From Nitrospiraceae bacterium (lineage in GTDB: Bacteria > Nitrospirota > Nitrospiria > Nitrospirales > Nitrospiraceae): a stretch of DNA of 64,000 nt. Positions 3,926 through 50,908 of the stretch are shown one piece after another. Where the stretch lies: contig JBFWWG010000007.1 of NCBI GenBank assembly GCA_050246315.1, positions 64,001-128,000 on the forward strand, written 5' to 3'. The stretch's first letter is position 1. Each line of letters opens with the position of its first letter. A program made the position numbers and the translations under genes. The notes below the pieces were generated by a model that saw only the letters and a program-made list of their open reading frames with translations, searched no databases and was not told where the DNA came from.

Positions 3926-6522
3926 CGCAACCCCTCCGCAGGAACCTGTCTGCTCACCCAACGAGCCGGCCAGGCACCGGCGACGAGCGCCGCTCCCATG
4001 GCCAACACGACCGCCTGTGCCAATACCGGAAACGAGATCGTCAGATGCACCGTCCATCCAAAGGATTGTTTATTGATGACCCGCACCAACACCAGGGCCA
4101 GGCAGAGCCCGCTCGCCACACCCAGGATCGCCCCGATCACGCCAAGATACAGCGCTTCCCAAAGGACCAAGCCGGTCACCTGGCCATGGCTTGCTCCCAT
4201 GGCCCGCAAGGTAGCGAATTCCCTCTGTCGTTCCAGCACCGCCGTGAGCAATGTATTCACGATGCCCAGCACCCCGACCATCACCGCGATCACTTCCAAT
4301 ACATAGGTCAGTGCAAAGGTGCGGTCGAAGATCGTCAGAATCTCCCTCCGCAGGTCTGCATTCTTGATCACCGTGAGAATGGGCGCGGATCGGCTGAGTC
4401 CCAGAAATTGCCATTCCAATCGGCGGGTGACCTCGTCCAGATCGGCGCCAGGCTCAAGGTACACCGGCACCACCGTGGCCCCTTCTTCTCCCCAGAGCTC
4501 CCGGAACAGCGAACGGTCCATCACCATCTTTCCGCCGTCGGTCGCATAGTCATAAAAGACCCCCACCACGGGAACGGTCCGTTCTCCCGCGGGCGTCGGA
4601 ATCACAATTACGTCGCCCTCACGTAAGCGAAGCGCGTTTGCCAACACCTCGGAAACCACGACTCCTCGGCGGAGGATCGCCTGCCGGAGGATGGTCTCCG
4701 ACTCGCCGGCGGTGAAGAGATACCGGCTCCGTTGAGCATGGAGCGTCAGATCTCTGGCAACGATCGACCGCGGACGCCCGTCGAGTTCGATCCGGAGGTC
4801 ACGATAGGAATCAACCGCCTCCACACCGGGAGTCCGGGCGATTCGGTCCGTCCAAGCAAGGGGGATCAAAACATCGCGACCGCCTTCATGCCCCGCATAG
4901 GGCCATCCACCAGGCGCTATAATCAGGTCCGCAACTACCGTCTGGTCAATCCAGGCCTCCACGGTCTGGCGGAAGCTCTGAATCATCAACACCACCCCGA
5001 CCATGATCGCCAGTCCGATCATGAGGGCAGAGACCGTCACTCCATTTCGCCCGGGCGACCGTCCCGCGGTTTGGACGGCCAGAACCGGGAAAATGGCCCT
5101 GGGGTGGGTGTTCCATCGATCCCACGCTCGGAACAGGCTCCCTCCAGCACAGACAGATATCAGCGGTGGCGCCAGGAACGAAAACCCGATCAAGAGCAGG
5201 AGAACCGAAAGATACCCTCCCACCGGAATCGCCCCTACCGGGGGTAGGATCGACAGGCCCGCAGAGCTGATCAGCAGAGCCACTCCGGTCCAGACGTGCC
5301 GCGAGACCCGTATGGGTCTCGCCGAGTCGTATCCGCCGACCGAGAGCGCTTGAACCACCTCGGTTCGTGCGGCCTCGATGCTCGGCCCCAGGGCACCCAG
5401 CAGTGAGAATCCCGTTCCGAGAAGCAGGCCCCTCCCCAACAGCGGAAGAACAGCAACGTCGAGATGCGTGCTGGCCGAGACCGCGGCATAGAGATCGGTT
5501 ACCGTGCGTCCGACCAACAGGATCAAGCGATCAGCCAACACCAGCCCCAGAAGGCTGCCCAGCATCCCCCCCGCTATGCCGAACACGGCACCTTCGATCA
5601 AAAACAAACCGGCCAGCATCGGCTCCGACATCCCGATCGCGCGCAAAATGCCGATCTCCCGGCGGTGCTGCGCGACTGAGAACGATAGCGTGTTGTAGAT
5701 CAAAAATCCGCCTACGAGCAGCCCAACCAGGCTCAACATCAGGAGATTAAGCCGAAATGCCTGCACCATCGCATCCATCTGCTCCCCCCGTTGCTCCGGT
5801 CGTCTGGCATGGAGCGAGGGGGGAAGCAGGGCCTGGACCTGGCCCTGTATCTCTTCCAGGGACTGTTCCGCCTCGACTAAGAGTTCGATTCGATCTAGCT
5901 TCCCCACCCGTTCAAAGAGTTCCTGGGCCGCGGCAATGTCCATGACAGCCAGGTCGTCCCAGACAGACGGCCCATGAGACGCTCCTTCTATAATGCCGAT
6001 GACAACCAGCCGGTGAGGTTCGACCCCGGCGATGACATCCAAGTTGCGGCCAGATTGCGCACCGATGCGATCGGCCAGGCGACGCCCGACCAAGACCGCC
6101 CTTTCTTCGAACCATCGAGGGGTGGGGGAGTTCGGCAGATCATCCTGAAGTTTTACGGGTTTGATCCGTTCCAGATCGAGGAGATCCAGAGCGAGGACTG
6201 AAAAGGCTAAACCGGAAGCCGAGTGGCGAAGCCCTTCCTGGAGCACCGGCATGGCGGCGAGCACCCCTGGGATGCCGCGCAAGGGGACGATGATCTCCTC
6301 GGCAAAACTCCCTGTGTCCGAGACCACCTCCAACCTTGCCCCACCGGCAACCTCGAGTACCGCTTCTTGGAACGACTCCAGGACCACCTGATTGGCGCTT
6401 TGGAGCCCCACCGGCGCCGCAACTCCCAGACTGACGCCGACGATGGTCAGACCCGTGCGAAGCGGATGGCCAGTGACATGGCTCTTGGCCAAGCGCCAGG
6501 CGCAGAGCAGGAGCCCGATCAT
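3916..6522 (-). CDS. ABC transporter permease with duplicated MacB/FtsX domains
   Basis: PLRTGLTIVGVSLGVA, RREIGILRAIGM and second ERQREFATLRAMGAS repeat; ATG at 6522 preferred over 6600. Confidence 0.88.
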   Translation of the reverse strand: MIGLLLCAWRLAKSHVTGHPLRTGLTIVGVSLGVAAPVGLQSANQVVLESFQEAVLEVAGGARLEVVSDTGSFAEEIIVPLRGIPGVLAAMPVLQEGLRHSASGLAFSVLALDLLDLERIKPVKLQDDLPNSPTPRWFEERAVLVGRRLADRIGAQSGRNLDVIAGVEPHRLVVIGIIEGASHGPSVWDDLAVMDIAAAQELFERVGKLDRIELLVEAEQSLEEIQGQVQALLPPSLHARRPEQRGEQMDAMVQAFRLNLLMLSLVGLLVGGFLIYNTLSFSVAQHRREIGILRAIGMSEPMLAGLFLIEGAVFGIAGGMLGSLLGLVLADRLILLVGRTVTDLYAAVSASTHLDVAVLPLLGRGLLLGTGFSLLGALGPSIEAARTEVVQALSVGGYDSARPIRVSRHVWTGVALLISSAGLSILPPVGAIPVGGYLSVLLLLIGFSFLAPPLISVCAGGSLFRAWDRWNTHPRAIFPVLAVQTAGRSPGRNGVTVSALMIGLAIMVGVVLMIQSFRQTVEAWIDQTVVADLIIAPGGWPYAGHEGGRDVLIPLAWTDRIARTPGVEAVDSYRDLRIELDGRPRSIVARDLTLHAQRSRYLFTAGESETILRQAILRRGVVVSEVLANALRLREGDVIVIPTPAGERTVPVVGVFYDYATDGGKMVMDRSLFRELWGEEGATVVPVYLEPGADLDEVTRRLEWQFLGLSRSAPILTVIKNADLRREILTIFDRTFALTYVLEVIAVMVGVLGIVNTLLTAVLERQREFATLRAMGASHGQVTGLVLWEALYLGVIGAILGVASGLCLALVLVRVINKQSFGWTVHLTISFPVLAQAVVLAMGAALVAGAWPARWVSRQVPAEGLRYE

Positions 6523-6665
6523 CCAGCCCCCTTCATGGACAGGGCCTTCTGGCCGGGTAGATGAGCCGGCCGATCCGATCACGCACAGGAAAAAAACCAC
6601 AGGCCTAGGGGTTTTACCAGCAGGTAGTTTACAGGGGCTGTCGGCTGTGCTAGGCTAGCCACACT

Positions 6666-6968
6666 ATGAAGACGCACCGAAAGACAACCAAACGAGCCAG
6701 ATCGCCTGTCAGATCGCGAGCCCGTGCGACCGCCGCCACACGCTCGGTCCCGAGATTGGCCCTGACGCCTCGACAGAAGGAAATCCTGCGCTGTGTCGCT
6801 CAAGGTCTGACCAATCGAGAGACGGCGCACCGATTACGGATCAGTGTGCGCACCGTCGAAGTGCACCGCTTCAATCTCATGCGCCGTCTGGGAGTCCGGA
6901 ACGTGGCCCAGTTGCTACGCCAGGCCCTGATGCACAAGTTTCTCCCGAAGAATTTTCTCGCCCGATAA
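6666..6968 (+). CDS. Stand-alone LuxR/NarL-type HTH regulator
   Basis: LTPRQKEILRCVAQGLTNRETAHRLRISVRTVEVHRFNLMRRLGV. Confidence 0.88.
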   Translation: MKTHRKTTKRARSPVRSRARATAATRSVPRLALTPRQKEILRCVAQGLTNRETAHRLRISVRTVEVHRFNLMRRLGVRNVAQLLRQALMHKFLPKNFLAR

Positions 6969-38669: not shown

Positions 38670-38708
38670 CCTACCGCCTGGCCCATCACGAACAAGAATA
38701 GGTTGAAG

Positions 38709-39785
38709 ATGATGAATCGATTCAACAGCCCGTCGGGGCCGGCTCCCAACCGACCACCCCACTCGCGATGGATGCCGCTGGTCGTCTGTTTATGCAGCGT
38801 GATCTTGATCCTGGCGTCGTCACCCGTGGCACAGGCGGCGGACAAGGACAAGCTGGTCGTGTACTCGGGGAGGAGCGAGCGCCTCATCAAACCCGTGTTG
38901 GATGCATTTCAAAGCAAGACGGGGATTCAGATCGAACTGCTGTCTTCCGGAACAACGGAACTCGTCAACCGCCTGCAGGTTGAAGGGGATCGTACGCCAG
39001 CCGATGTGTTGATCACCAACGATGCTGGCAGCCTCGAACGGGCCAGGGAACTGGGGTTGCTCCAGCCGCTCAAGCTTCACGACATCGACCGGGCGATTCC
39101 CGTCCAATATCGAGCCGCTGATCAGAGCTGGATCGGACTTTCCGGCCGGTTTTGGGTCATCGTCTACAACAAGAACCTCGTGAAGCCTGAGGAGATCGTC
39201 TCGCTTTTCGATCTGGCCAAGCCGAGCTGGAAGGACAAGATCGGGATTCCTAACGCCGGCAGCGAATACCTCCAAGCGGGAGTTTCAGTCATTAAAGAAA
39301 CCTATGGTGATCAGCGGACCAAAGAGTTTCTGAGCGGTCTGAAGCAGAACGCAGGGTCCAGAGTCTACGGGAAAAGCTCGCAGATTGTGGAAGCGGTCGC
39401 CAAAGGCGAGGTGGCGGTTGGCATCGTCAACCACTACTATATCTATCGCCATCTGGGGGCGAACCCTTCTGCGCCGATCGCCGCCATCATGCCGGACCAA
39501 CAGGCCGGCGGGATGGGCGCGATTTTGAACGTCGCCGGTATTGGCGTGACCAAGGCCAGTCATCGATTGGACAGCGCGCGTGCGCTTGCAGAATTTCTCG
39601 TCGGCCAATCCGGTCAACAGCTCTTCGCCGAACTTAATAAAGAATATCCCCTCCATCCGGACGTCAAGGCCGACCCTGCGCTCATCGAGCGAACTTCCTT
39701 CCGAGCGGCCCCCGTTCCTCTCGCCAAGCTCGCGGAACTCAGGGACCCGACGATGGCCCTGATTGAGGATGTTGGGCTTCGGTAG
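38709..39785 (+). CDS. fbpA: Fe(III) ABC transporter substrate-binding protein (FbpA/FutA type)
   Basis: Signal peptide; LVVYSGR, EGDRTPADV, WIGLSGR, GIVNHYY Tyr pair, EYP. Confidence 0.9.
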   Translation: MMNRFNSPSGPAPNRPPHSRWMPLVVCLCSVILILASSPVAQAADKDKLVVYSGRSERLIKPVLDAFQSKTGIQIELLSSGTTELVNRLQVEGDRTPADVLITNDAGSLERARELGLLQPLKLHDIDRAIPVQYRAADQSWIGLSGRFWVIVYNKNLVKPEEIVSLFDLAKPSWKDKIGIPNAGSEYLQAGVSVIKETYGDQRTKEFLSGLKQNAGSRVYGKSSQIVEAVAKGEVAVGIVNHYYIYRHLGANPSAPIAAIMPDQQAGGMGAILNVAGIGVTKASHRLDSARALAEFLVGQSGQQLFAELNKEYPLHPDVKADPALIERTSFRAAPVPLAKLAELRDPTMALIEDVGLR

Positions 39786-39800
39786 TCGCGTTCAGCCCCC

Positions 39801-41390
39801 ATGACCGCGACAGTTCTCCGTCATCACCTGCTGTCGCCCCTTCAATTACTCGTCCTCCTGATTGCTGGCACCCTCTGCCTTCCATTGGGGTATGTGCTGG
39901 TGCAGGCGGCGACCACAGATCCGGCCTTGTGGAGCCGCTTGTGGCGGACCAGGTTACCTGAGTTGCTGGTCAACACCGCCTCGCTCGCTGTGACGGTATC
40001 CGGAGTCACGCTGCTCCTCGGCCTGTCCCTTGCCTGGCTTGTCACACGATATGAATTTCCGGGACGGACGATCTGGGAATGGGCCCTCATTCTGCCGCTG
40101 GCGATGCCGACCTTTGTACTGGCCTACGTCTATGCTCACCTGCTTTCAACCGGCGGCCCGGTGGACCGGCTTTGGCAGGTGGTGGCGGGACCCGATCATC
40201 ACGTGTTTGCCCCGCAAAGCTTGACCGGGGTGACGCTCGTGATGGCGCTCGATACATTCCCCTTCGTCTACGTGCTCTGTCGCGCGGCCCTCCTCAACAT
40301 GAATCTCTCCTTCGAGGAGGTGGCGCGTGCCTGTGGCGTCGGTCGCTGGCCGACCTTCCTACGGGTCACCGTGCCGCTCCTCCGTCCGGCGATCTTTGCC
40401 GGTCTCTCGCTGGTGGTGCTCTACGTGGTCTCGGACTTCGGCGCAGTATCAATGTTGCGCTACCAGACACTGACCTACGCGGTCTACCAGCAGATGACGG
40501 GACGATACGATTATGCTGCAGCCAGCGTATTGAGTCTGCTGCTGGTCCTCTTTGCGCTGGTGTTTCTCCTCACCGAACGGTGGTTCAGGCGTCGCAGTCG
40601 GTTCTACCAAACCGCGGGACGGTTCCGACAAGCACCCAGACAATATCCCGGCCTGGGACAGCGACTCGGTATGACGCTGTATGTCGGAGTGATCTTCGCG
40701 CTCTCCTTCGGTATTCCGGCCTGGCTGTTGCTCATCTGGAGTGCCGGTGCGTTTCAGGAAGGTGTGCTCGACGCTCGCTTCTTCGACTTTACCTGGAACA
40801 GTGTCAGCCTTTCGGCGACAGCCGCGACCGGCGCGGTCCTGCTGGGAGCGCCGGTCGCTTATCTCAGCACCCGCCGACCAGGCTGGCTGAACCACTTCTG
40901 CCTACATGCCTCCTACGCGGGCTACGTGCTCCCTGGCCCGGTGGCCGCCCTGGCGCTGCTGGTCATCGTGCTGGCGTTGGCACCAGCCTGGTACGGGTCG
41001 GCAGCGGTGCTCATCCTTGCCTACATCCTGCATTTCCTCCCGGTCGGATTGCAGTCGCTGGAGCCCGCGATTCAACAAGTCACCCCCAATCTGGAGGAAG
41101 CGGCCCGCAGCCTCGGCAGTACCCTATGGGACACCATGCGACGCGTGACGCTCCCGCTCATCCGCAACGGATTCTTCGGGGCTTGGATTTTGATGTTCCT
41201 CCAATGTATGAAGGAACTGCCGGCCACGCTCTTGCTGCGCCCGGTGGGGTTCGATACCCTGGCCGTGCGGGTCTGGTTGGAGGCCAGCGAGGAACTCTAC
41301 ACGTTGGCCGCTGCGCCGGCCTTGTTGATCGTCTTATTCAGCCTGCCGGCCCTCGCGCTCCTGGTGGCACGGGACTGGCGGGCGGGGTGA
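39801..41390 (+). CDS. fbpB: Fe(III) ABC transporter permease
   Basis: Two EAA loops (FEEVARACG, LEEAARSLG), DFGAV, MKELPATLLLRP. Confidence 0.9.
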   Translation: MTATVLRHHLLSPLQLLVLLIAGTLCLPLGYVLVQAATTDPALWSRLWRTRLPELLVNTASLAVTVSGVTLLLGLSLAWLVTRYEFPGRTIWEWALILPLAMPTFVLAYVYAHLLSTGGPVDRLWQVVAGPDHHVFAPQSLTGVTLVMALDTFPFVYVLCRAALLNMNLSFEEVARACGVGRWPTFLRVTVPLLRPAIFAGLSLVVLYVVSDFGAVSMLRYQTLTYAVYQQMTGRYDYAAASVLSLLLVLFALVFLLTERWFRRRSRFYQTAGRFRQAPRQYPGLGQRLGMTLYVGVIFALSFGIPAWLLLIWSAGAFQEGVLDARFFDFTWNSVSLSATAATGAVLLGAPVAYLSTRRPGWLNHFCLHASYAGYVLPGPVAALALLVIVLALAPAWYGSAAVLILAYILHFLPVGLQSLEPAIQQVTPNLEEAARSLGSTLWDTMRRVTLPLIRNGFFGAWILMFLQCMKELPATLLLRPVGFDTLAVRVWLEASEELYTLAAAPALLIVLFSLPALALLVARDWRAG

Positions 41391-41399
41391 TTTCCTAAC

Positions 41400-42605
41400 A
41401 TGCAACAGCCTCCCACGATCTCCGTCTCCGACACGCCCTCGCCGCGAAGCCATGTGGCCGAGCAGCCGAGCAAAGCGGGACTATCCACCGATCACGCTCC
41501 GGTCTTGGAACTCCGCCGCATTTCTTGCGCCTATCAATCCAACAGGTCGGCCATCACGGACATTTCCCTGACAGTGGGAAGCGGAGAAATCGTCTGCCTG
41601 TTAGGGCCGTCCGGGTGCGGAAAGACAACAACATTGCGGGCGATCGCAGGATTCGAACCGGTCGTGGCTGGAGAGATCTATCTCGCCGGCAACCTCATGT
41701 CCTCCCCATCCGTCCAAGTGCCGACCGAAGCGCGCAGTGTCGGGATGGTATTTCAAGAGTATGCGCTGTTCCCGCATCTCCGTGTCGCGGATAACATTAC
41801 CTTCGGGCTGACCAAGCTGCCCGCCGCCCAGCGTCAAGCCCGTGTGACTGCCATGCTTGAATTGACGGGTCTGGTCGGGTTGGAGCATCGCTACCCGCAC
41901 GAACTCTCCGGCGGACAACAGCAACGAGTGGCGCTGGCTCGCGCCCTGGCCCATCATCCCGTCGTCCTGCTGCTCGACGAACCGTTCAGCAACCTGGACC
42001 CGGACATGGCCTCCAAGATGCGCCGCGAGTTGCACATCCTACTGAAACGGACCAATATCACCACCATTCTCGTGACACACGATCATGAGGCCGCGTTCGC
42101 CATCGCCGACCGCATTGCGGTCTTGAACGAAGGGCGTCTGGAGCAACTCGACACGCCGGAAATGATCTACCACCTTCCGGCGACTCGCTTCGTAGCCGAC
42201 TTTGTCGGCCATGCCGACTTTGTCCCGGGCGTCGTACAGGATGGTCGGGTGACGACGGATCTGGGTGACTTCCCCAACCACGGGAAGTTTCCTCCCGGTA
42301 CGCCGCTGGTCGTCATGATCCGGCCTGACGACATTCGCCTCTCCCCGGACCCGCAAGGGCGTGCCCGTATCCTTTCGCGTCAATTTAGGGGATCGGAGAA
42401 TCTGTACAACATTCAGTTGCCCTCAGGCCGATTCATCCACAGCATCGAGTCTTCGACCGCGATTTATCCACCGGGCACATCCGTGACCATAAGGATCGAG
42501 GCAGCGCACACGGTGCTCTTCAAGCAACAGGCGGGTCCGGCATCTGCGTCAACCGATGCGCCACAACCGCCTGCATCCGGTATGATCGATGGAGGCCCTT
42601 GTTGA
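41400..42605 (+). CDS. fbpC: Fe(III) ABC transporter ATP-binding protein
   Basis: GPSGCGKT, VFQEYALFPH, LSGGQQQR, LDEPFSNLD, TOBE-like tail. Confidence 0.9.
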   Translation: MQQPPTISVSDTPSPRSHVAEQPSKAGLSTDHAPVLELRRISCAYQSNRSAITDISLTVGSGEIVCLLGPSGCGKTTTLRAIAGFEPVVAGEIYLAGNLMSSPSVQVPTEARSVGMVFQEYALFPHLRVADNITFGLTKLPAAQRQARVTAMLELTGLVGLEHRYPHELSGGQQQRVALARALAHHPVVLLLDEPFSNLDPDMASKMRRELHILLKRTNITTILVTHDHEAAFAIADRIAVLNEGRLEQLDTPEMIYHLPATRFVADFVGHADFVPGVVQDGRVTTDLGDFPNHGKFPPGTPLVVMIRPDDIRLSPDPQGRARILSRQFRGSENLYNIQLPSGRFIHSIESSTAIYPPGTSVTIRIEAAHTVLFKQQAGPASASTDAPQPPASGMIDGGPC

Positions 42606-42741: not shown

Positions 42742-42784
42742 TTGACGGAGGCGTCACACCTGTGGTATTGAAAACCGTTATCAA
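42742..42784 (+). promoter_or_regulatory. Putative exbB promoter overlapped by a Fur box
   Basis: TTGACG (-35), TATTGA (-10) and 7-1-7 inverted repeat TGAAAAC-C-GTTATCA at 42769-42783. Confidence 0.7.
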
Positions 42785-42863: not shown

Positions 42864-43289
42864 ATGGAAGTCCTGAAAGAAACGGTGGATTACGGTGTGA
42901 TCGGGTTGCTCCTCGCGCTCAGTCTCTGGTGCGTAGCGGTTGCGGTGGAGCGGTGGTTGTTCTATCGCCAGGTTGACCTCGCCCAGTTTCCCAATCGGCA
43001 GGTTTTTGAGATCGCGCTCACCAAGCGCTTGGTGGTGATCGGCACGGTCGCGGCCAACGCACCGTATATCGGGCTCCTGGGAACGGTGTTGGGCATTATG
43101 TTGACCTTTCACACGATGGGGACCTCAAAAACGATCGCCGTCAGCGCCATCATGATCGGCCTGAGCTTGGCTCTCAAAGCCACCGCTGTCGGCCTGCTGG
43201 TCGCAATCCCCTGCGTCGTAATGAACAATGTGCTGAGACGGAAGGTCAGTGAGCTACTCACCCTTTATCAGGTCCAGCATGGATCGTGA
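42864..43289 (+). CDS. exbB: TonB-system energizer ExbB (short type)
   Basis: NAPYIGLLGTVLGIM, ALKATAVGLLVAIP. Confidence 0.95.
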   Translation: MEVLKETVDYGVIGLLLALSLWCVAVAVERWLFYRQVDLAQFPNRQVFEIALTKRLVVIGTVAANAPYIGLLGTVLGIMLTFHTMGTSKTIAVSAIMIGLSLALKATAVGLLVAIPCVVMNNVLRRKVSELLTLYQVQHGS

Positions 43290-44971: not shown

Positions 44972-45421
44972 GTGAAAGAGAGACAGTCTGTTCGGGCGCT
45001 GTTGATTCCAGGACTCATCCTCGCACTCGTTTGCAGTGTCACTGGGGCTGCGTTTGGTCAAGCGAAGCATGACAAAGCCTTTACTGCCACTGTGACCGAC
45101 GCACAGGGGATTGAAAGTGAGGTCAAGAATGTCCATTTCTACTGGGAGGAGAAGGTCAGCGAAACAGCGTTCGTCCCTCACGAATTGAGACACGTTCCCG
45201 TCAAGCGCGGCACGGCGACCGTCAACGTCAAATTCGACACGATCAAACAGATCGATATTAAGCCCGCCTCCGACAGCGGACTCCCGATGCTACTCATCAC
45301 CCTGAGCAACGGCAAGACCGGCGAATTTGCCTTGGCCATCGATGGGAAGTTCAAAGGGGAGTCCGACTTTGGTGAAGTAGAATTGCCTGCAGGCGGCCTC
45401 AGGAAGGTGGTCTTCAAGTGA
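44972..45421 (+). CDS. Secreted beta-rich hypothetical protein
   Basis: GGAGGG RBS, GTG start, signal peptide ending AFG/QA; lies between tonB and the receptor. Confidence 0.75.
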   Translation: MKERQSVRALLIPGLILALVCSVTGAAFGQAKHDKAFTATVTDAQGIESEVKNVHFYWEEKVSETAFVPHELRHVPVKRGTATVNVKFDTIKQIDIKPASDSGLPMLLITLSNGKTGEFALAIDGKFKGESDFGEVELPAGGLRKVVFK

Positions 45422-45545
45422 AGCCCCGCTTCACAAAGGGACGCCTGGGCGCCCCGAACCGTGTGGACGTCACGGCGAGCTACCCGTACTCGCTTTTTGT
45501 AGAGCTCACTCTCAGCCGTTAGACACTTTCAGGAGGATGAAAACG

Positions 45546-47939
45546 ATGTGTGAAGGGTTATCATGTAAATGGCTATTGAGAATAGGAACTAATTTTAATA
45601 TCAAGCCATGGACACGATTCGCCGCTTGGTACGTGCTCACGTTCTCATGCGTACTGATTGCACCCGCCTTCGCGCAATCGCCTTCGACGACGGAGCAGCC
45701 TGAGGAGACTTCGAAAAACGAGGCGGTTGGCTCCAAGGAGGAGGCGGTCCAGGTAAAAGAGGAGGCAGTCCAAGCAAAGGAAGAGGAAGCGCCCATCAAG
45801 ATTCCACTGACGGAAGTCATCGGCACCTCCCCTGAGGCATTGGAACATATTCCGGGCTCCGGTCGCGTCATCACGAAGGAGAGAATTGAGCAGAATCATC
45901 GTTTCTCCATCAATGAAACCCTGCGCGAGGTCCCCGGCGTCAATGTGCGGGACGAGGAGGGATTGGGAATTCGGCCGAACATCGGAATCCGCGGCCTCGA
46001 CCCGACCCGCAGCCGCAAAGTGCATATCATGGAAGACGGCGTACCGATCATGCTGATGCCCTACGCCGATCCCTCGGCCTATTATTTTCCTCCGATCTTT
46101 CGCTTCGATCGCATTGAAGTCCTGAAAGGCAGCGGCCAATTGCTCTTCGGACCGCAAAATATCGGCGGGGTGATGAACCTCATCACGCGCATGCCGCCCC
46201 CTACGCCAGAAGGGAATATTCAGTTCTGGGGCGGCAACCTCAACTATATCAACACCCATTTTGACTACGGAGGCACGTGGGGCAAGAGCGGATACTTGGT
46301 CGACTATACGCATTATCAAAGTGATGTGCCGCGCTTTACGAACACGCGGGCGAAGATCGACGACCTGACCTTCAAAACAGTGCAAGAGTTGAGCGATCGC
46401 ACTCAAATCCTGGCCAAGTTCAACTACTATCGAGAGGAATCCAGCATTGGCTACCAAGGCCTCACCGAAAGCATGTATGCACAGAATCCCCGCACGACTC
46501 CGTTCACGAACGACAATCTGGAGTTCCAGCGCATCGGCGCCCATGTCGCGGTCAATCACATGTTTACGGCCAATCTAACCTCGACCACTAATTTCTTCGG
46601 CCACTACATTGATCGGCCTTGGCAAAGGCAGTTCCAACAGGGCGTCGATGTCAACGGGAACCCTGTGGGCCCCGTCGTGCTCAGCAACAACATACCGGCC
46701 TCCTCCTATGCCGTCGTCCCGGCGGACGGTCGGTTTACCAACGCGCGGGAGTACTGGGTCTGGGGCGTCGAGCCGCGGTTCCATTATGTCCATCGGCTGT
46801 TCGGTATCAGCGCGGAGGCGGATTTCGGCGCACGGTACATGTACGAACAGGGCGACCGGATTCAGTACCGGAATCTCGCCTCCGGCGCGGGCGCCAATTT
46901 CAGTTGCTTCACCCCCCCGCCAGGCTCGACGACGTGCTTGGGGGAAAGCAATTTCCGTACGACGAACGCCTATGCCCTGTTTTTCCAAGAGCGGTTGATC
47001 ATGGGCAAATTCACCATTACTCCGGGAGTGCGGCTCGAGTACTTCAAATATACTGCGGACAACCGGTTGGCCAACAACGGCAACGGCAACTTCGGCGAAA
47101 CCGAATTCTTCGAGGCGTTGCCGGGCATCGGCGCCACATACTCCCTGAACAAGAACCATATGTTCTTTGCTGGAGCCCATCGCGGCATGTCCCCGCCATT
47201 GATCTCCGATGCGGTCACAGGGACCGGTGCCGTGGTGGACCTTGAACCCGAGTTGAGCTGGACTTACGAAATCGGCGCCAGGGGTACGCCGACTTACTGG
47301 GCCGGTTATGAACTGACCTTTTTCGAGTTGGACTTCCAAAACCAAATCGTTTCCCAGTCGGTTGCAGGGGGCGCCGGCGCGACGCAGACTAGTGCTGGCC
47401 ACACTCGACATCGCGGGATCGAATTCGCCACCAAATTGGACCTCTTGGACGCCGTGACTCGCCAAAACAATGATCAGGATCTCCTCTTCGACGTCAACTT
47501 TACCTGGGTCGCGGATGCGGAATTCAGAGGGACGCGGAACAGCTCCATCACGGGTTCCGCCCTGCTCCCCGGTGAACCCACCACGGTCAGCGTGACGGGC
47601 AACCGGCTGCCCTACGCTCCCGAGTATATGTTGACGGCCGGATTGGGCTACACCCACCGACCGTTTGGATTCAATGCCAGGCTGGAAACTCAATGTCTCA
47701 GCGACATGTACGCGGACGACCGGAACACCGTCACCCCCACGCCCAACGGACAGCGTGGGTTGATCAGCGGATGGTGCGTGCTGAACGCTGCCATCAACCA
47801 GTATGTCAAACCGATTAAGACGACATTTTTCTTTGTCGGCAAGAACATGCTGGGTCAAGACTTCATCGTGGATCGGACCCGAGGGATTTATTCGGGAATG
47901 CCGGCGCTCTGGCAGGCCGGAGCCAAATGGACGTTCTGA
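45546..47939 (+). CDS. TonB-dependent receptor, FecA-like
   Basis: Signal peptide, TEVIG box, plug LREVPGV...NIGIRG...EDGVP...RIEVLKG, NRLPYAPE, C-terminal WTF; ATG 45546 best spaced from AGGAGG. Confidence 0.95.
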   Translation: MCEGLSCKWLLRIGTNFNIKPWTRFAAWYVLTFSCVLIAPAFAQSPSTTEQPEETSKNEAVGSKEEAVQVKEEAVQAKEEEAPIKIPLTEVIGTSPEALEHIPGSGRVITKERIEQNHRFSINETLREVPGVNVRDEEGLGIRPNIGIRGLDPTRSRKVHIMEDGVPIMLMPYADPSAYYFPPIFRFDRIEVLKGSGQLLFGPQNIGGVMNLITRMPPPTPEGNIQFWGGNLNYINTHFDYGGTWGKSGYLVDYTHYQSDVPRFTNTRAKIDDLTFKTVQELSDRTQILAKFNYYREESSIGYQGLTESMYAQNPRTTPFTNDNLEFQRIGAHVAVNHMFTANLTSTTNFFGHYIDRPWQRQFQQGVDVNGNPVGPVVLSNNIPASSYAVVPADGRFTNAREYWVWGVEPRFHYVHRLFGISAEADFGARYMYEQGDRIQYRNLASGAGANFSCFTPPPGSTTCLGESNFRTTNAYALFFQERLIMGKFTITPGVRLEYFKYTADNRLANNGNGNFGETEFFEALPGIGATYSLNKNHMFFAGAHRGMSPPLISDAVTGTGAVVDLEPELSWTYEIGARGTPTYWAGYELTFFELDFQNQIVSQSVAGGAGATQTSAGHTRHRGIEFATKLDLLDAVTRQNNDQDLLFDVNFTWVADAEFRGTRNSSITGSALLPGEPTTVSVTGNRLPYAPEYMLTAGLGYTHRPFGFNARLETQCLSDMYADDRNTVTPTPNGQRGLISGWCVLNAAINQYVKPIKTTFFFVGKNMLGQDFIVDRTRGIYSGMPALWQAGAKWTF

Positions 47940-47989
47940 GCGGAATCGGCAAGTCGAACCATGAGCTTCGGACAAATAAAGGACTGAAC

Positions 47990-48175
47990 ATGATGACCCA
48001 ACGGGCCGTCAGAGACAGCCACCAGACCGACGACAGCGAGGATGTGCGTTGCGACTGCGGCCAGCTTGTGGCCCGATGGGTGGGCGACGACATCCAGATC
48101 AAATGCAAGCGGTGCCGGCGTCTTGTGCGGATCGCGGTGCCGAGATCCCGATCCTCCCCATCGGGCAAGTCCTGA
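47990..48175 (+). CDS. Com-family (phage Mu Com-like) zinc-knuckle protein, 61 aa
   Basis: AAAGGA RBS; VRCDCGQLVAR...IQIKCKRCRRLV matches the RC..C.KLL...IEIKC.RC pattern. Confidence 0.75.
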   Translation: MMTQRAVRDSHQTDDSEDVRCDCGQLVARWVGDDIQIKCKRCRRLVRIAVPRSRSSPSGKS

Positions 48176-48245
48176 CCGTCGGGAGACGAGGCGAGCTTCC
48201 TCGAACGGTCAACATTCGACACGAGGCCAGAGGTTTCAAACCCAG

Positions 48246-48281
48246 AGCCCACGATCGCGTGATGCGATCGTGGGCTTTTTT
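48246..48281 (+). terminator. Intrinsic terminator/attenuator between the Com-like gene and the HD-GYP gene
   Basis: Perfect 13-bp stem AGCCCACGATCGC-gtgat-GCGATCGTGGGCT running into TTTTTT. Confidence 0.85.
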
Positions 48282-48306
48282 GTCATGCGAGATCACGGAG
48301 AGGGAC

Positions 48307-49011
48307 ATGCCCATGTCACAGTACACCCCTGGATTCCCCATCGGAAGGGGCAACCTGCTCAGCATCTTGGAAGACTTGAAAGCACTCGATTTTGGGCCTC
48401 CCTCGTGCGCCATTCACTGGGCCGCGATCTCGCGTGTGGTCCGGGAGCTGGCCGCCCTGATCGATCGCATCTCTCCGCGACATCAAGGACACGGTCGCCG
48501 CACAGCCGACTTCGCTCACCGTCTCGGTTTGACTTTGGGTCTTCCATGGGACGAGCTCCGAGATCTGGCGCTGGCCTCACACCTCCACGATATCGGCCTC
48601 TTGGCGCTTCCGCCCGACCTCGTCAAAGAACATCGCGAACTCTCTCCGCAGGAATTCGTCCGCTACCAAAACCATCCTCGTTCCGGGGCCGAGCTCCTGG
48701 AGTCGATTTCTTTCCTCAAGCGCCCGGCGCTCTGGATCGCTCACCATCATGAGCGGTGGGACGGCTGTGGCTATCCCTACGGGTTGCGCGGCGAATACAT
48801 CCCGTTGGGTGCCAGGATACTGGCCATTGCAGACACCTTTGATCTGTATCTGCACCAAGCTGGCCACGCTCCCGAATCAAACATCCTGGCGGCCACGTCC
48901 CTGTTGCGGGTCGTAGCCGGTTCGCAACTGGACCCTGAGCTTGTCGAGCAGTTTCTCCAAATTGTCTCCTCACTTACATTTTCTGATCCCACACTTTTGG
49001 GATCTCATTGA
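48307..49011 (+). CDS. Stand-alone HD-GYP domain protein
   Basis: GHGRRTA, LHDIG, HHERWDGCGYPYGL, ARILAIADTFD; GGAGAGGG RBS. Confidence 0.88.
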   Translation: MPMSQYTPGFPIGRGNLLSILEDLKALDFGPPSCAIHWAAISRVVRELAALIDRISPRHQGHGRRTADFAHRLGLTLGLPWDELRDLALASHLHDIGLLALPPDLVKEHRELSPQEFVRYQNHPRSGAELLESISFLKRPALWIAHHHERWDGCGYPYGLRGEYIPLGARILAIADTFDLYLHQAGHAPESNILAATSLLRVVAGSQLDPELVEQFLQIVSSLTFSDPTLLGSH

Positions 49012-49147: not shown

Positions 49148-50908
49148 ATGCTGTATCATTCGCCCACGCATTTGACATCAGGACCGTCCAATTGGGCCCG
49201 CTCGACTCTGTCCGGATTGCTCCTTGTTCTCCTTCTGACCGGCTGCGGTTCCGACTCCGACAACGCCAGCTCGACCGGTCAGACCAACCCCGCTCCAACC
49301 GGTACGGCAGGCGCCGAGGAAGATGTGGGCGAACGGCTGTTCGTGGAGACTCGGTTCGCCCGCGCTTTCAAGCTCTTTCTGGACGGGGGAGGGAAAGTCA
49401 ACGACCCGCTTCCTACAGGTGACCCGGTGATGAACGAAACACAGACCACCGGCCAGCCGCTGCCCGGCCCATTCGCAGGGATGTCCATGAACTGCCGCGC
49501 CTGCCACCTGGTGGACGAACAGGTCGGCGTCGCCGGAGGCGGCATGCGGACCTATGCGGATTTTGCGAGGCGGAGCCCCGTTCCGCAGGCGTCTGACGGC
49601 CATGTCACGAGTCCGAGACATGCTCCGCCGCTCGTCGGCGCCTCGGTGGATCGACCGGTTGGGACCCTATTTCACCTAGACGGAGAGTTCGCAACCATGG
49701 AAGATCTGGTTGCAGGCACCTTCACGGACCGCAATTTCGGATGGATGCCGGGGCAGAAAGCCGAGGCCATCCAACAACTGGCTCGGGTGATTCGCGAGGA
49801 CGACGGCAAGGGCAATCTCGCGCAGGAGTTTGACGGGCAATCCTATCGCATGCTACTTGCGGGGACCGACCCCGCCATCCCTGAAGATTTTCGGCTGCCA
49901 TCCGACTTCCGCATCAATGTGGACTCGAGCACGGATGAGGAGGTCTTCAATGCCGTGGTGCGGCTCGTCAGCGCCTATGTCACAGGACTCGAATTTTCCC
50001 AAGAGGACGAAGACGGCGTTCCGATCCGTTCGCCATTCGATATCTTTCTGGAGGTCAACAATCTTCCGCCGCAGCCTGACCAGAATGAACTCCCGCTCGA
50101 CTATAGCCGCCGGCTCCGCGGGCTGGTGGCTGGGCTCCAGAATCCAATATTCGTTCAGGCCAACCCCAATCGATCTGATGGCAAGTTCCAATTTCACGAC
50201 CAACCATTCCAGTTCGGTGCCAAGGAACTGGAGGGCTTGAAAATCTTTCTGAGTGAACCTCAGACGGCCACGGCATCACCGGAAGAATTGGCCCAGGGTA
50301 AAATCGGCAACTGCGTTCGCTGTCACGCCGCCCCTCATTTCACCGATTTCAAACTCCACAACACCGGCGTCAACCAAAAGGAATACGACGACCTGCACGG
50401 TGCAGGTCAATTTGCGCAGCTTGCGATACCATCTCTCTCGGCCAGGAAGGCCGCTCCGCAGCAATATCTGCCGGCAACCCATGAGCATCCCACCTATCAG
50501 GGGCCGTTCCGCTCTCCGCCATCGGCTTCGAATCCGGCACTGACGGACCTCGGCCTCTGGAACATCTTCGCCAACCCCGACATGCCCAATCCGCAAGCGA
50601 CGATCCGGGCGATCCTCTGTGAGGATCAGCCTTCTCCCTGCCCTTCGGACGACGTCCTGCTCCCGTTGACAATTGCTCGCTTCAAGACTCTCAGCCTCCG
50701 CGACCTCGGCCACTCGGCCCCCTATATGCACAACGGGCAACTCGACACTCTGGACGATATTGTGACCGCCTATCGGAACTCGTCCAACGCCGCGCGTGGC
50801 GGCACCCTCCGGAACCATGATCCGCTCCTTCTTGGGATTGCATTGACCGCAAGTGATGTCTCCCCGTTGGTCGCATTTCTTCATTCGCTCAATGAGGACT
50901 ACCAGTGA
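49148..50908 (+). CDS. Di-heme cytochrome c peroxidase superfamily lipoprotein (bCcP/MauG/MbnH-like)
   Basis: Lipobox LTGC, GERLF, CRACH, RHAPPL, CVRCH, FTDFKLHNTG, FKTLSLRDL..SAPYMHNG, LVAFLHSL. Confidence 0.88.
   Translation: MLYHSPTHLTSGPSNWARSTLSGLLLVLLLTGCGSDSDNASSTGQTNPAPTGTAGAEEDVGERLFVETRFARAFKLFLDGGGKVNDPLPTGDPVMNETQTTGQPLPGPFAGMSMNCRACHLVDEQVGVAGGGMRTYADFARRSPVPQASDGHVTSPRHAPPLVGASVDRPVGTLFHLDGEFATMEDLVAGTFTDRNFGWMPGQKAEAIQQLARVIREDDGKGNLAQEFDGQSYRMLLAGTDPAIPEDFRLPSDFRINVDSSTDEEVFNAVVRLVSAYVTGLEFSQEDEDGVPIRSPFDIFLEVNNLPPQPDQNELPLDYSRRLRGLVAGLQNPIFVQANPNRSDGKFQFHDQPFQFGAKELEGLKIFLSEPQTATASPEELAQGKIGNCVRCHAAPHFTDFKLHNTGVNQKEYDDLHGAGQFAQLAIPSLSARKAAPQQYLPATHEHPTYQGPFRSPPSASNPALTDLGLWNIFANPDMPNPQATIRAILCEDQPSPCPSDDVLLPLTIARFKTLSLRDLGHSAPYMHNGQLDTLDDIVTAYRNSSNAARGGTLRNHDPLLLGIALTASDVSPLVAFLHSLNEDYQ

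Follow-up and report, generated by a model that had tools for sequence, protein, structure and literature searches.

A 64,000-nt stretch of a Nitrospiraceae genome (positions 64,001–128,000 of contig JBFWWG010000007.1, assembly GCA_050246315.1; hereafter "the window," with coordinates counted from its first nucleotide) contains what appears to be an RNA switch operated by a very small protein. The gene for a 61-residue Com-like zinc-ribbon protein (47990–48175), a proposed RNA-binding regulator recognized by its translation (CxC...CxxC) and by profile searches, is followed by an RNA motif (48221–48253) identified with a covariance model and by covariation. The 3′ half of this motif also forms the base of a predicted intrinsic terminator (48244–48281), and the first gene past this attenuator encodes a stand-alone HD-GYP protein of 234 residues (48307–49011; Pfam HD_5, E = 4.1e-35), all on the plus strand. 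In related genomes, the protein gene and the motif co-occur near-completely. We propose that, by binding the motif, the protein obstructs the base of the terminator and allows read-through into the HD-GYP gene, a mechanism that we regard as moderately probable; we infer both that this protein binds this RNA and that binding favors read-through over termination.

Results

A Conserved RNA Motif Downstream of the Small Gene

The paired repeats GAGGCCAGAG-gtttcaaa-CCCAGAGCCC that the original prediction had singled out at 48223–48250 are present far beyond chance expectation, and the CCAGAG/GAG..CC element that they make up proved to be real, conserved, and overlapping with the 5′ arm of the terminator. 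The element can be parsed into two short helices separated by internal loops: P1 pairs GGC (48225–48227) with GCC (48247–48249), the two internal loops are CAGA (48228–48231 and 48243–48246), and P2 pairs GGUU (48232–48235) with AACC (48239–48242) around a UCA loop, in keeping with the consensus 5′-GGC-CAGA-(P2 5′ strand)-loop-(P2 3′ strand)-(C)AGA-GCC-3′. A MAFFT alignment of all 50 motif copies was abandoned, as 3-nt and 4-nt versions of the 3′ loop had been aligned in two different registers; the covariance model, R1, was instead built from 26 copies with a four-nucleotide 3′ loop, and Infernal realigned the remaining copies. Run on the 64-kb window with filters off, R1 finds 48221–48253 at 40.6 bits (E = 3.2e-8), with the runner-up at 13.9 bits (E = 0.27). 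The only other R1 match in the whole source genome (C1:574141–574174; 24.9 bits, E = 0.026) falls at the very start of the coding sequence, within the first codons, of an open reading frame (ORF) that is alcohol-dehydrogenase-like; it has no terminator and was judged a likely chance match. A strict CCAGAG...GAG regular expression gave 13 matches in the same genome, of which only the one in the window is the motif, and was set aside in favor of the covariance model.

Across 87 distinct sequences, 98% of the cells at paired positions are paired, and there are 69 double-change cells, as opposed to 17 ± 10 when columns are shuffled, with none of 500 shuffles reaching the observed number. These counts are inflated by the relatedness of the sequences and by the use of an alignment fitted to the model. 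When the 3′ partner is shifted by a single column, pairing drops to 40–59%. The P2 stems seen include GGUU/AACC (the window), GGAC/GUCC, GGU/ACC, GACU/AGUC, GGA/UCC, GGC/GCC, GGG/CCC, GACA/UGUC, and GGAU/AUCC. Judged by this covariation, the motif is a conserved, structured RNA element, if a small one, with only 6 modeled pairs and 8 loop bases.

The structural parse P1-loop-P2-loop-P1′ applies to 58 of the 86 distinct regions downstream of the protein gene, and most of the other 28 carry variant forms, namely tandem GGRC-loop-GYCC hairpins (a marine-type group), GGC-UNGC-GGU...ACC (Manganitrophus-type genomes), or CAUA in place of CAGA (two loci). In the marine-type Nitrospirales (loci L011, L012, L014, L015, L017, and L088–L120, from 2- to 3-Mb genomes), the two tandem hairpins that follow the small gene, GGGC-CACAAGA-GCCC and GGAC-CGGCAGA-GUCC, lie just upstream of the ribosome-binding site of the next gene; their loops have C at the start and AGA at the end, and a separate motif-terminator copy is found ∼3.4–4 kb further on. 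A further hairpin, which the original prediction had placed over the stop codon of the 61-aa ORF (48173–48211), is indeed present (−17.0 kcal/mol), but it is a weak one, equaled in stability by 8 of 200 shuffles (z = −1.87), and is kept only in the closest relatives, within the genus, spacer length and sequence varying in other genera; we leave it out of the module.

At E ≤ 1, the covariance model gives 119 matches in 100 related loci (827 kb), 118 of them on the strand of the protein gene. This bears on whether the repeats might be a DNA operator for a DNA-binding regulator, as could be suggested by the NCBI product name "DNA-binding transcriptional regulator" attached to Com relatives and by the direct repeat CCAGAG...CCAGAG, which could suit a dimer. 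A double-stranded operator would sit poorly with the near-exclusive use of the coding strand of the cluster and with the position of the element, which is intergenic and ahead of terminators or ribosome-binding sites, not at promoters. Because compensatory changes keep the P2 pairs while sequence and loop length vary, the constraint falls on a single strand, and we consider a DNA operator very improbable.

The Motif and the Terminator Are Alternative Folds

A terminator scan finds 16 pairs at 48244–48278, 9 of which are G-C. The core of the stem is made up of 12 Watson-Crick pairs (48247–48258 with 48264–48275), flanking G-U and A-U pairs bring the total to 15–16, and T6 (48276–48281) is located directly 3′ of the stem. 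The original prediction was thus right that the second CCAGAG copy forms the 5′ base of the terminator, but not that the stem is a perfect 13-bp helix. The segment 48221–48284 folds at −33.7 kcal/mol (z = −5.6), and, with its G+C-rich stem-loop and U-run, 48244–48281 is, as modeled, an intrinsic terminator.

Because the hairpin starts within AGAGCCC, the 3′ internal loop and the P1 3′ strand are also the base of the terminator 5′ arm; that is, 48243–48246 and 48247–48249 overlap an arm that starts at 48244. When the motif pairs are enforced in folding, the energy rises to −22.7 kcal/mol, a cost of ∼11 kcal/mol, and the residual terminator stem ends at least 3 nt before the U-run. Intrinsic termination is crippled when the base pairs next to the U-run are lost. 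In these folding models, the motif and the complete terminator are mutually exclusive. The same fusion is seen in 73 of 85 distinct motif copies scoring at least 19 bits, where a hairpin starts in AGAGCCC and ends at a U-rich tail, and homologs located outside prophages keep both the repeats and the terminator, the lack of which would have told against the original prediction.

The ATG of the HD-GYP gene (48307) follows the T-run after 25 nt, the distance originally estimated, and is preceded by a GGAGAGGGA Shine-Dalgarno sequence. A scan for sigma-70-type sites, which covers E. coli-type promoters only, finds no promoter-like site on the plus strand between 45565 and 52000, and hence none between the T-run and the HD-GYP gene, where an independent promoter would have spoken against the attenuator. 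Because the U-run and the ATG are only 25 nt apart and no promoter-like site is seen, there is little room for a separate HD-GYP promoter.

Contigs assembled from public RNA libraries were also inspected. Those from runs X1 and X5 (one study) match 47775–48218 at 100% identity, covering the end of the receptor gene and all of the small ORF, and in both runs the contig ends at 48218, 3 nt upstream of the motif; a break in the assembly could account for this, as could a genuine 3′ end. Run X6 yields pieces on either side with none spanning, and run X2 yields one 37.7-kb contig at ∼97% identity that likely comes from a relative, or from DNA carryover in the library. Because contigs cannot show ends or levels, they say nothing firm on termination.

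The shared stop at 48218 would also fit an ordinary operon-end terminator located behind an unimportant ORF, with chance repeats and with the HD-GYP gene served by a promoter of its own, as would the lack of terminator enrichment in the region (8 found between 45000 and 52000 versus 6.3 ± 2.4 in shuffles). Chance repeats would hardly give a motif match at the E value obtained in the window, 25 nt leaves scant space for the promoter, and conservation of the motif, of its structure, and of the terminator fused to it extends over a bacterial class and reaches at least one further lineage. This explanation strikes us as scarcely credible.

Other Leaders with Predicted Coupling of the Motif to the Ribosome-Binding Site

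The remaining motif copies precede porin-like genes and have no terminator. In each single-sequence fold of these leaders, base pairing is predicted between codons ∼8–11 and the 3′ half of the motif, so that the ribosome-binding site is enclosed. A consensus fold of nine porin-type leaders has the same long-range helix, with one double-change pair and a covariation term of approximately zero; the helix is suggestive, not proven.

A second Com-like gene in the source genome (G000 contig C5:165317–165457; locus L039:7213–7485, with the downstream region to 7600) is located upstream of genes for a porin-like protein, a small lipoprotein-like ORF, an FMN_bind protein, and ApbE. The 3′ strand of its hairpin, GGAC-CAUUGC-GUCC, is complementary to AUGGGACGC in the start-codon region of the porin-like gene, and the minimum-energy fold uses this pairing of the P2 3′ strand with AUGGGACGC. 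The layout looks very like that of the phage Mu target beside its translation-inhibiting structure. A tRNA gene (L039:5665–5737; Rfam, 61.8 bits) is found 1.5 kb upstream of this second Com-like gene.

The Motif Travels with the Protein Gene

To tally downstream genes, we collected 69 non-redundant ORFs having a Shine-Dalgarno start within 130 nt behind a motif copy. HD_5 (HD-GYP) proteins account for 39 of these, TonB-dependent receptors for 11, and porin-like proteins of ∼500 residues for 9; an AraC regulator, a PepSY_TM protein, and TonB occur once each, and 7 have no family at E 1e-5. The commonest layout, which includes N. moscoviensis (L107, with the motif at 4157–4189), is the one seen in the window: small gene, motif, terminator, HD-GYP gene. 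In several loci, a motif copy is located ∼100 nt upstream of the small gene itself. Four genomes (G004, G008, G012, and G021) have a single protein gene and 2–4 motif copies, so that one protein would serve a small regulon in trans.

Among 41 relatives, the motif is found in 18 (E ≤ 0.05), and all 18 have the protein gene, which is frameshifted in one, G034. In that closed 2.1-Mb genome (L125/L127; C1:683878–684020), the Com-like gene is split across two frames by a frameshift or a sequencing error, and a motif-terminator copy is found 3.4 kb downstream of the split gene. Within the window's own family, 16 genomes have both, 2 have the gene only (76%–77% complete), 7 have neither, and none has the motif only; these tallies include an unpublished genome, G009, without which "both" becomes 15 and which is part of no alignment or model. 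In a wider check of 35 genomes, the motif is present in 8 of 15 gene-positive genomes, including all six from three other families of the class and one, G095, from a family outside the class, where it lies within ∼150 nt of the gene on the same strand. The 20 gene-negative genomes comprise 16 with no motif match, 2 with marginal matches (E = 0.016 and 0.043), and 2 with strong ones, considered below.

A Distant Cellular Homolog of Mu Com

The four-cysteine ORF that the original prediction described behind the TonB receptor gene is indeed there. It has cysteines at positions 21, 23, 39, and 42 and an AAGGA Shine-Dalgarno sequence 6 nt upstream, its dN/dS against close relatives is 0.34–0.37, and nine positions (C, C, G, L, A, K, C, R, C) are invariant in an alignment of 21 diverse members; going by this sequence evidence, it is a real, conserved gene. 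Relatives of the protein are found in 26 of the 41 related genomes (E ≤ 0.01), often 2–4 in each, and a profile search detects the family in 84 of 301 genomes sampled across the phylum. Of the two best-sampled families, one has the gene in 48 of 50 genomes and the other in 24 of 24, and all 6 genomes sampled from three further families of the same class carry it; elsewhere, it is seen in only 5 genomes. A scan of one genome per prokaryote species gives 338 relatives, and a public protein collection holds at least 788 clusters of them (E ≤ 1e-5), labeled "phage FluMu protein Com" in some cases and "hypothetical" in others by annotation pipelines. The source genome is Nitrospira-type, and the named relatives are from Nitrospira.

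An hhalign comparison of 21 Nitrospirales proteins with Mu Com and 14 of its relatives gives a match of 97.4% (E = 1.2e-11) over 36 columns, that is, the zinc-ribbon core, in which the CxC of the first knuckle appears as a one-residue deletion relative to Mu Com. All three subtypes tested match PHROG 6417 ("translational regulator") and PHROG 13819 ("gpCom"), which are the two best families of Mu Com itself; for the 61-aa protein, the E value against PHROG 6417 is 1.7e-5. AlphaFold predicts a three-strand zinc ribbon (pLDDT 76.5). When the family profile was searched against the sequences of solved structures, the ribosomal zinc ribbons eL43 (E = 0.14) and L33 (E = 0.7) came out best, neither of them significant. 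A tblastn search of 50,697 phage records finds nothing at E 0.01, and a domain scan of the neighborhood finds no phage genes, as had been stated in the original prediction. On the strength of the profile comparisons, we take the 61-aa protein to be a distant, cellular homolog of phage Mu Com and the Nitrospirales proteins to be a separate CxC lineage linked to TonB-dependent uptake and HD-GYP genes.

The motif, too, resembles the published Com target in its sequence, as had originally been proposed. According to passages of the study in question, SELEX with the zinc finger of Haemophilus Com yielded the consensus NGAGNNCC(N)2-3GAGNNCCNN, with a 3- to 4-bp stem, a C-G closing pair, and a protected GA, and Com bound CC(N)2-3GAG within a hexaloop (PMC6483171). 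Some relatives come close to this consensus, e.g., GAG-GA-CC-ACA-GAG-TC-CC behind the gene. The Mu target is a hairpin, AUGC-CUGCGA-GCAU, located just upstream of the structure that hides the mom start, and a relative belonging to another genus has GGAC-CUGCGA-GUCC behind its small gene, with a hexaloop, CUGCGA, identical to that of Mu.

Antitermination as the Proposed Mechanism

The window has the order gene, proposed target, inhibitory structure, next gene. We envisage that transcription enters from the exbB-exbD-tonB-receptor operon. When the protein is absent, the terminator would form and the operon transcripts would end after the small gene; the small protein would be made from that same transcript, and, once there is enough of it, it would bind the motif as this emerges from the polymerase. 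The bound motif would keep AGAGCCC from its terminator partner, the stem would fall short of the U-run, and the polymerase would continue into the HD-GYP gene and probably into the di-heme and AraC genes as well. Because the activator is encoded on the message that it extends, downstream expression would lag and would need sustained induction of the uptake operon. A motif copy ahead of the small gene itself would turn the circuit into one that reinforces itself.

Several observations weigh against this mechanism. On the RNA side, and in addition to the inflated double-change counts noted above, P1 is weakly proven because GGC/GCC is invariant in most copies (at one pair, A-U is seen in 6 and G-U in 2 of the 87 distinct sequences), and the isolated motif folds at −6.3 kcal/mol, no better than shuffles (z = −0.99), as is expected of a protein-dependent fold, though this is not proof of one. 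The P2 loop in the window, UCA, lacks the CC(N)2-3GAG sequence that is bound by Com, and the window subtype has its conserved (C)AGA-G units, with their GA residues, in the internal loops; because of this placement, the binding mode would differ from the tested mode of Com. On the protein side, the likeness to Com that was originally proposed, upheld by hhalign and PHROG, does not reach the Pfam gathering threshold: Zn_ribbon_Com (PF10122) scores 19.0 bits with the whole protein (E = 9.5e-4) and 20.1 bits with its core, compared with a threshold of 22.9 bits. Only 8 of the 21 family members match PF10122 at E ≤ 0.05, and all 21 aligned members have CxC, not CxxC, as the first knuckle. The predicted structure is a generic zinc-ribbon fold, and a search of viral predicted structures with the AlphaFold model finds nothing at E ≤ 0.001, as expected for a 47-residue zinc ribbon.

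The main counter-evidence is provided by the two gene-negative genomes with strong motif matches, G200 and G325 (one genus, both 99% complete). They carry the motif and terminator ahead of an HD-GYP gene (41.8 and 45.2 bits), and the protein gene was not found in either one with every candidate scored. The G200 contig breaks off 1.7 kb before the motif, short of the usual place of the gene. In G325 (L140, C1:28000–40000, 5365–6779), a porin-like gene retains only the final 301 codons and adjoins a divergent operon unrelated to it, and the usual place of the Com-like gene is missing while the motif-terminator leader of the HD-GYP gene is intact; this may be a natural case of regulator loss.

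A motif that persists where the protein gene was not found, and that elsewhere stands with its terminator before HD-GYP genes several kilobases from any zinc-ribbon gene, could instead be a small riboswitch or the target of another factor, with the zinc-ribbon protein a co-regulated neighbor that has another job; the ligand or other protein would stabilize P1 and so prevent the terminator. A conserved core joined to interchangeable platforms, here a terminator or pairing at the ribosome site, is also a typical riboswitch layout. Against this, Rfam 15 gives nothing relevant for 47800–48500 of the window at E ≤ 10 and only a tRNA for seven related loci at gathering score, and the element is small, its isolated fold being no more stable than those of shuffles. 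The protein gene is present in every one of the 18 genomes with the motif among the 41 relatives, the neighbor is homologous to Com, whose known RNA target resembles the motif, and both exceptions have a contig end or a deletion at the usual place of the gene. We consider a riboswitch, or a target of another factor, rather unlikely.

A different outcome of binding also has to be weighed, in that the protein might bind the motif and favor termination, or otherwise repress, giving negative feedback on the downstream genes and, through any copy ahead of the protein gene, on the protein itself. Sequence alone does not fix which way the effect goes, and the motif-terminator copies located ∼100 nt upstream of the protein gene in several loci (e.g., L024:10055, L055:3899, and L063:33) would suit autorepression. 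The 3′ half of the motif is needed to complete the terminator, however, and, when it is held in P1 or in a complex, a gap of 3 nt or more separates the stem from the U-run; leaders of the translation type have the motif competing with the helix that hides the ribosome site or start codon. Repression would also leave the HD-GYP gene with no evident route to expression unless activated, and Com itself is described, in passages of its study, as an activator that opens an inhibitory structure (PMC6483171). We rate repression as quite improbable and retain antitermination as our proposal.

Gene Neighborhood of the Module

The genes around the module, identified by a Pfam/NCBIfam domain scan of the window proteins, all lie on the plus strand. 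An Fe(III)-type ABC transporter (38703–42605) is followed by exbB (start at 42864), exbD (43249), tonB (43653), a conserved 149-aa ORF with no Pfam family (44972–45421), and the TonB-dependent receptor gene (45537–47939; Plug, E = 4.3e-19; TonB_dep_Rec, E = 1.6e-39). The 149-aa ORF has a signal-peptide-like start, and close homologs occupy the same position in other genera (L022:10221–10724, L023:4524–4991). Receptor gene and 61-aa ORF point in the same direction across a 50-nt gap (47939–47990), in which the terminator scan finds no terminator-like site.

Downstream of the HD-GYP gene are a putative di-heme protein of 586 residues with an MbnH/MauG-like C terminus (49148–50908) and, 3′ of 50908, two AraC-type regulators followed by a HlyD-MacB-type exporter. 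The match of the 586-aa protein to the NCBIfam MbnH family is partial (residues 510–583; E = 1.3e-14, 54 bits, cut-off 362.85). Homologs occur in the same clusters of other genera, and the gene is likely co-regulated cargo. The protein recurs downstream of HD-GYP genes in many clusters and is also seen beside ApbE and FMN_bind genes.

The original prediction had cast the module as a second layer of control under Fur, and this part was not borne out. The best Fur-box-like site in the window matches the consensus at 14 of 19 positions and lies at 42764–42782, ∼80 nt upstream of exbB; 23 sites with at least 12 matches were observed compared with 14 in mononucleotide shuffles, which we judge not convincing.

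Discussion

Com has so far been studied as a one-gene phage curiosity. A Com-type protein at the center of a chromosomal regulon, with a covarying RNA partner, would give the family a cellular function and, if the proposed mechanism is true, would add transcription antitermination to translation activation, the one known output of Com. Nitrospira and its relatives are the main nitrite oxidizers, and complete ammonia oxidizers, of soils, waters, and treatment plants, and the genes concerned act in c-di-GMP turnover, which bears on biofilm versus free-living behavior, and in TonB-dependent uptake. A protein of ∼60 residues and an RNA of 33 nt are easily tested and could serve as a compact orthogonal regulator.

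A more speculative idea, akin to the control by metal occupancy put forward in the original prediction and one that we find doubtful, is that the zinc-ribbon protein is itself a metal sensor and that only its correctly metallated form binds RNA. If this is true, the metal status of the cell would determine whether the CxC/CxxC site is occupied or empty, or whether Zn and Fe replace each other in it, and the module would be a protein-based, metal-responsive attenuator that couples metal supply to c-di-GMP hydrolysis by an iron-dependent HD-GYP enzyme. Outer-membrane uptake genes would be coupled as well, and the switch would be self-amplifying where a motif copy precedes the protein's own gene.

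In antiterminators of the BglG/SacY/LicT type, the protein stabilizes an imperfect hairpin with internal loops, the 3′ side of which overlaps the 5′ arm of a terminator. The working principle of these proteins and their RAT elements is, as we read it, the same as that of the proposed module. The Nitrospirales protein is, however, much smaller and of another fold, its RNA is unrelated in sequence, and it has no link to the sugar phosphotransferase system. A domain scan finds no CAT or PRD domains in the 61-aa protein or its neighbors, and the protein therefore stands outside the BglG/SacY/LicT family.

HIV Tat-TAR, like Com, acts on nascent RNA and promotes expression; with no homology and with elongation control of a eukaryotic kind, it is an analogy only. 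Passages by the authors of the SELEX study do note that TAR and the Com target have in common a hexaloop of the form CC(N)2-3GAG closed by a C-G pair (PMC6483171).

Full-text searches of a collection of open-access papers and bioRxiv preprints turned up no account of the Nitrospirales module. The nearest reports are those on Mu Com itself and, in the passages concerned, on com-like genes of the PF10122 type located directly upstream of llpA (encoding a lectin-like bacteriocin), tailocin cargo, and levansucrase genes in Pseudomonas, the role of which is stated to be unexplored (PMC6240691). As described there, these genes share with the window gene a position outside a functional Mu-type mom context and directly upstream of cargo; unlike the Nitrospirales family, they are tied to prophage-derived or tailocin regions, and those passages describe no RNA target or terminator coupling for them.

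The closest counterpart remains Mu Com. Both proteins are four-cysteine zinc ribbons of ∼60 residues with a disordered tail, and both are encoded immediately upstream of what they control (proposed control, in the case of the 61-aa protein); the Mu target and the proposed Nitrospirales target are short hairpins with GA/GAG and CC elements that adjoin an inhibitory structure. The Nitrospirales protein differs in being cellular, with no nearby phage genes or matches in phage records. Its proposed target lies 3′ of the stop codon, whereas that of Mu Com is inside the coding region, and in the window the conserved GA residues are in internal loops instead of the terminal loop. In the window, too, the predicted inhibitory structure is a transcription terminator, whereas in Mu it is a translation-inhibiting hairpin, and the Nitrospirales genomes have several copies of the proposed target, which would together form a small regulon.

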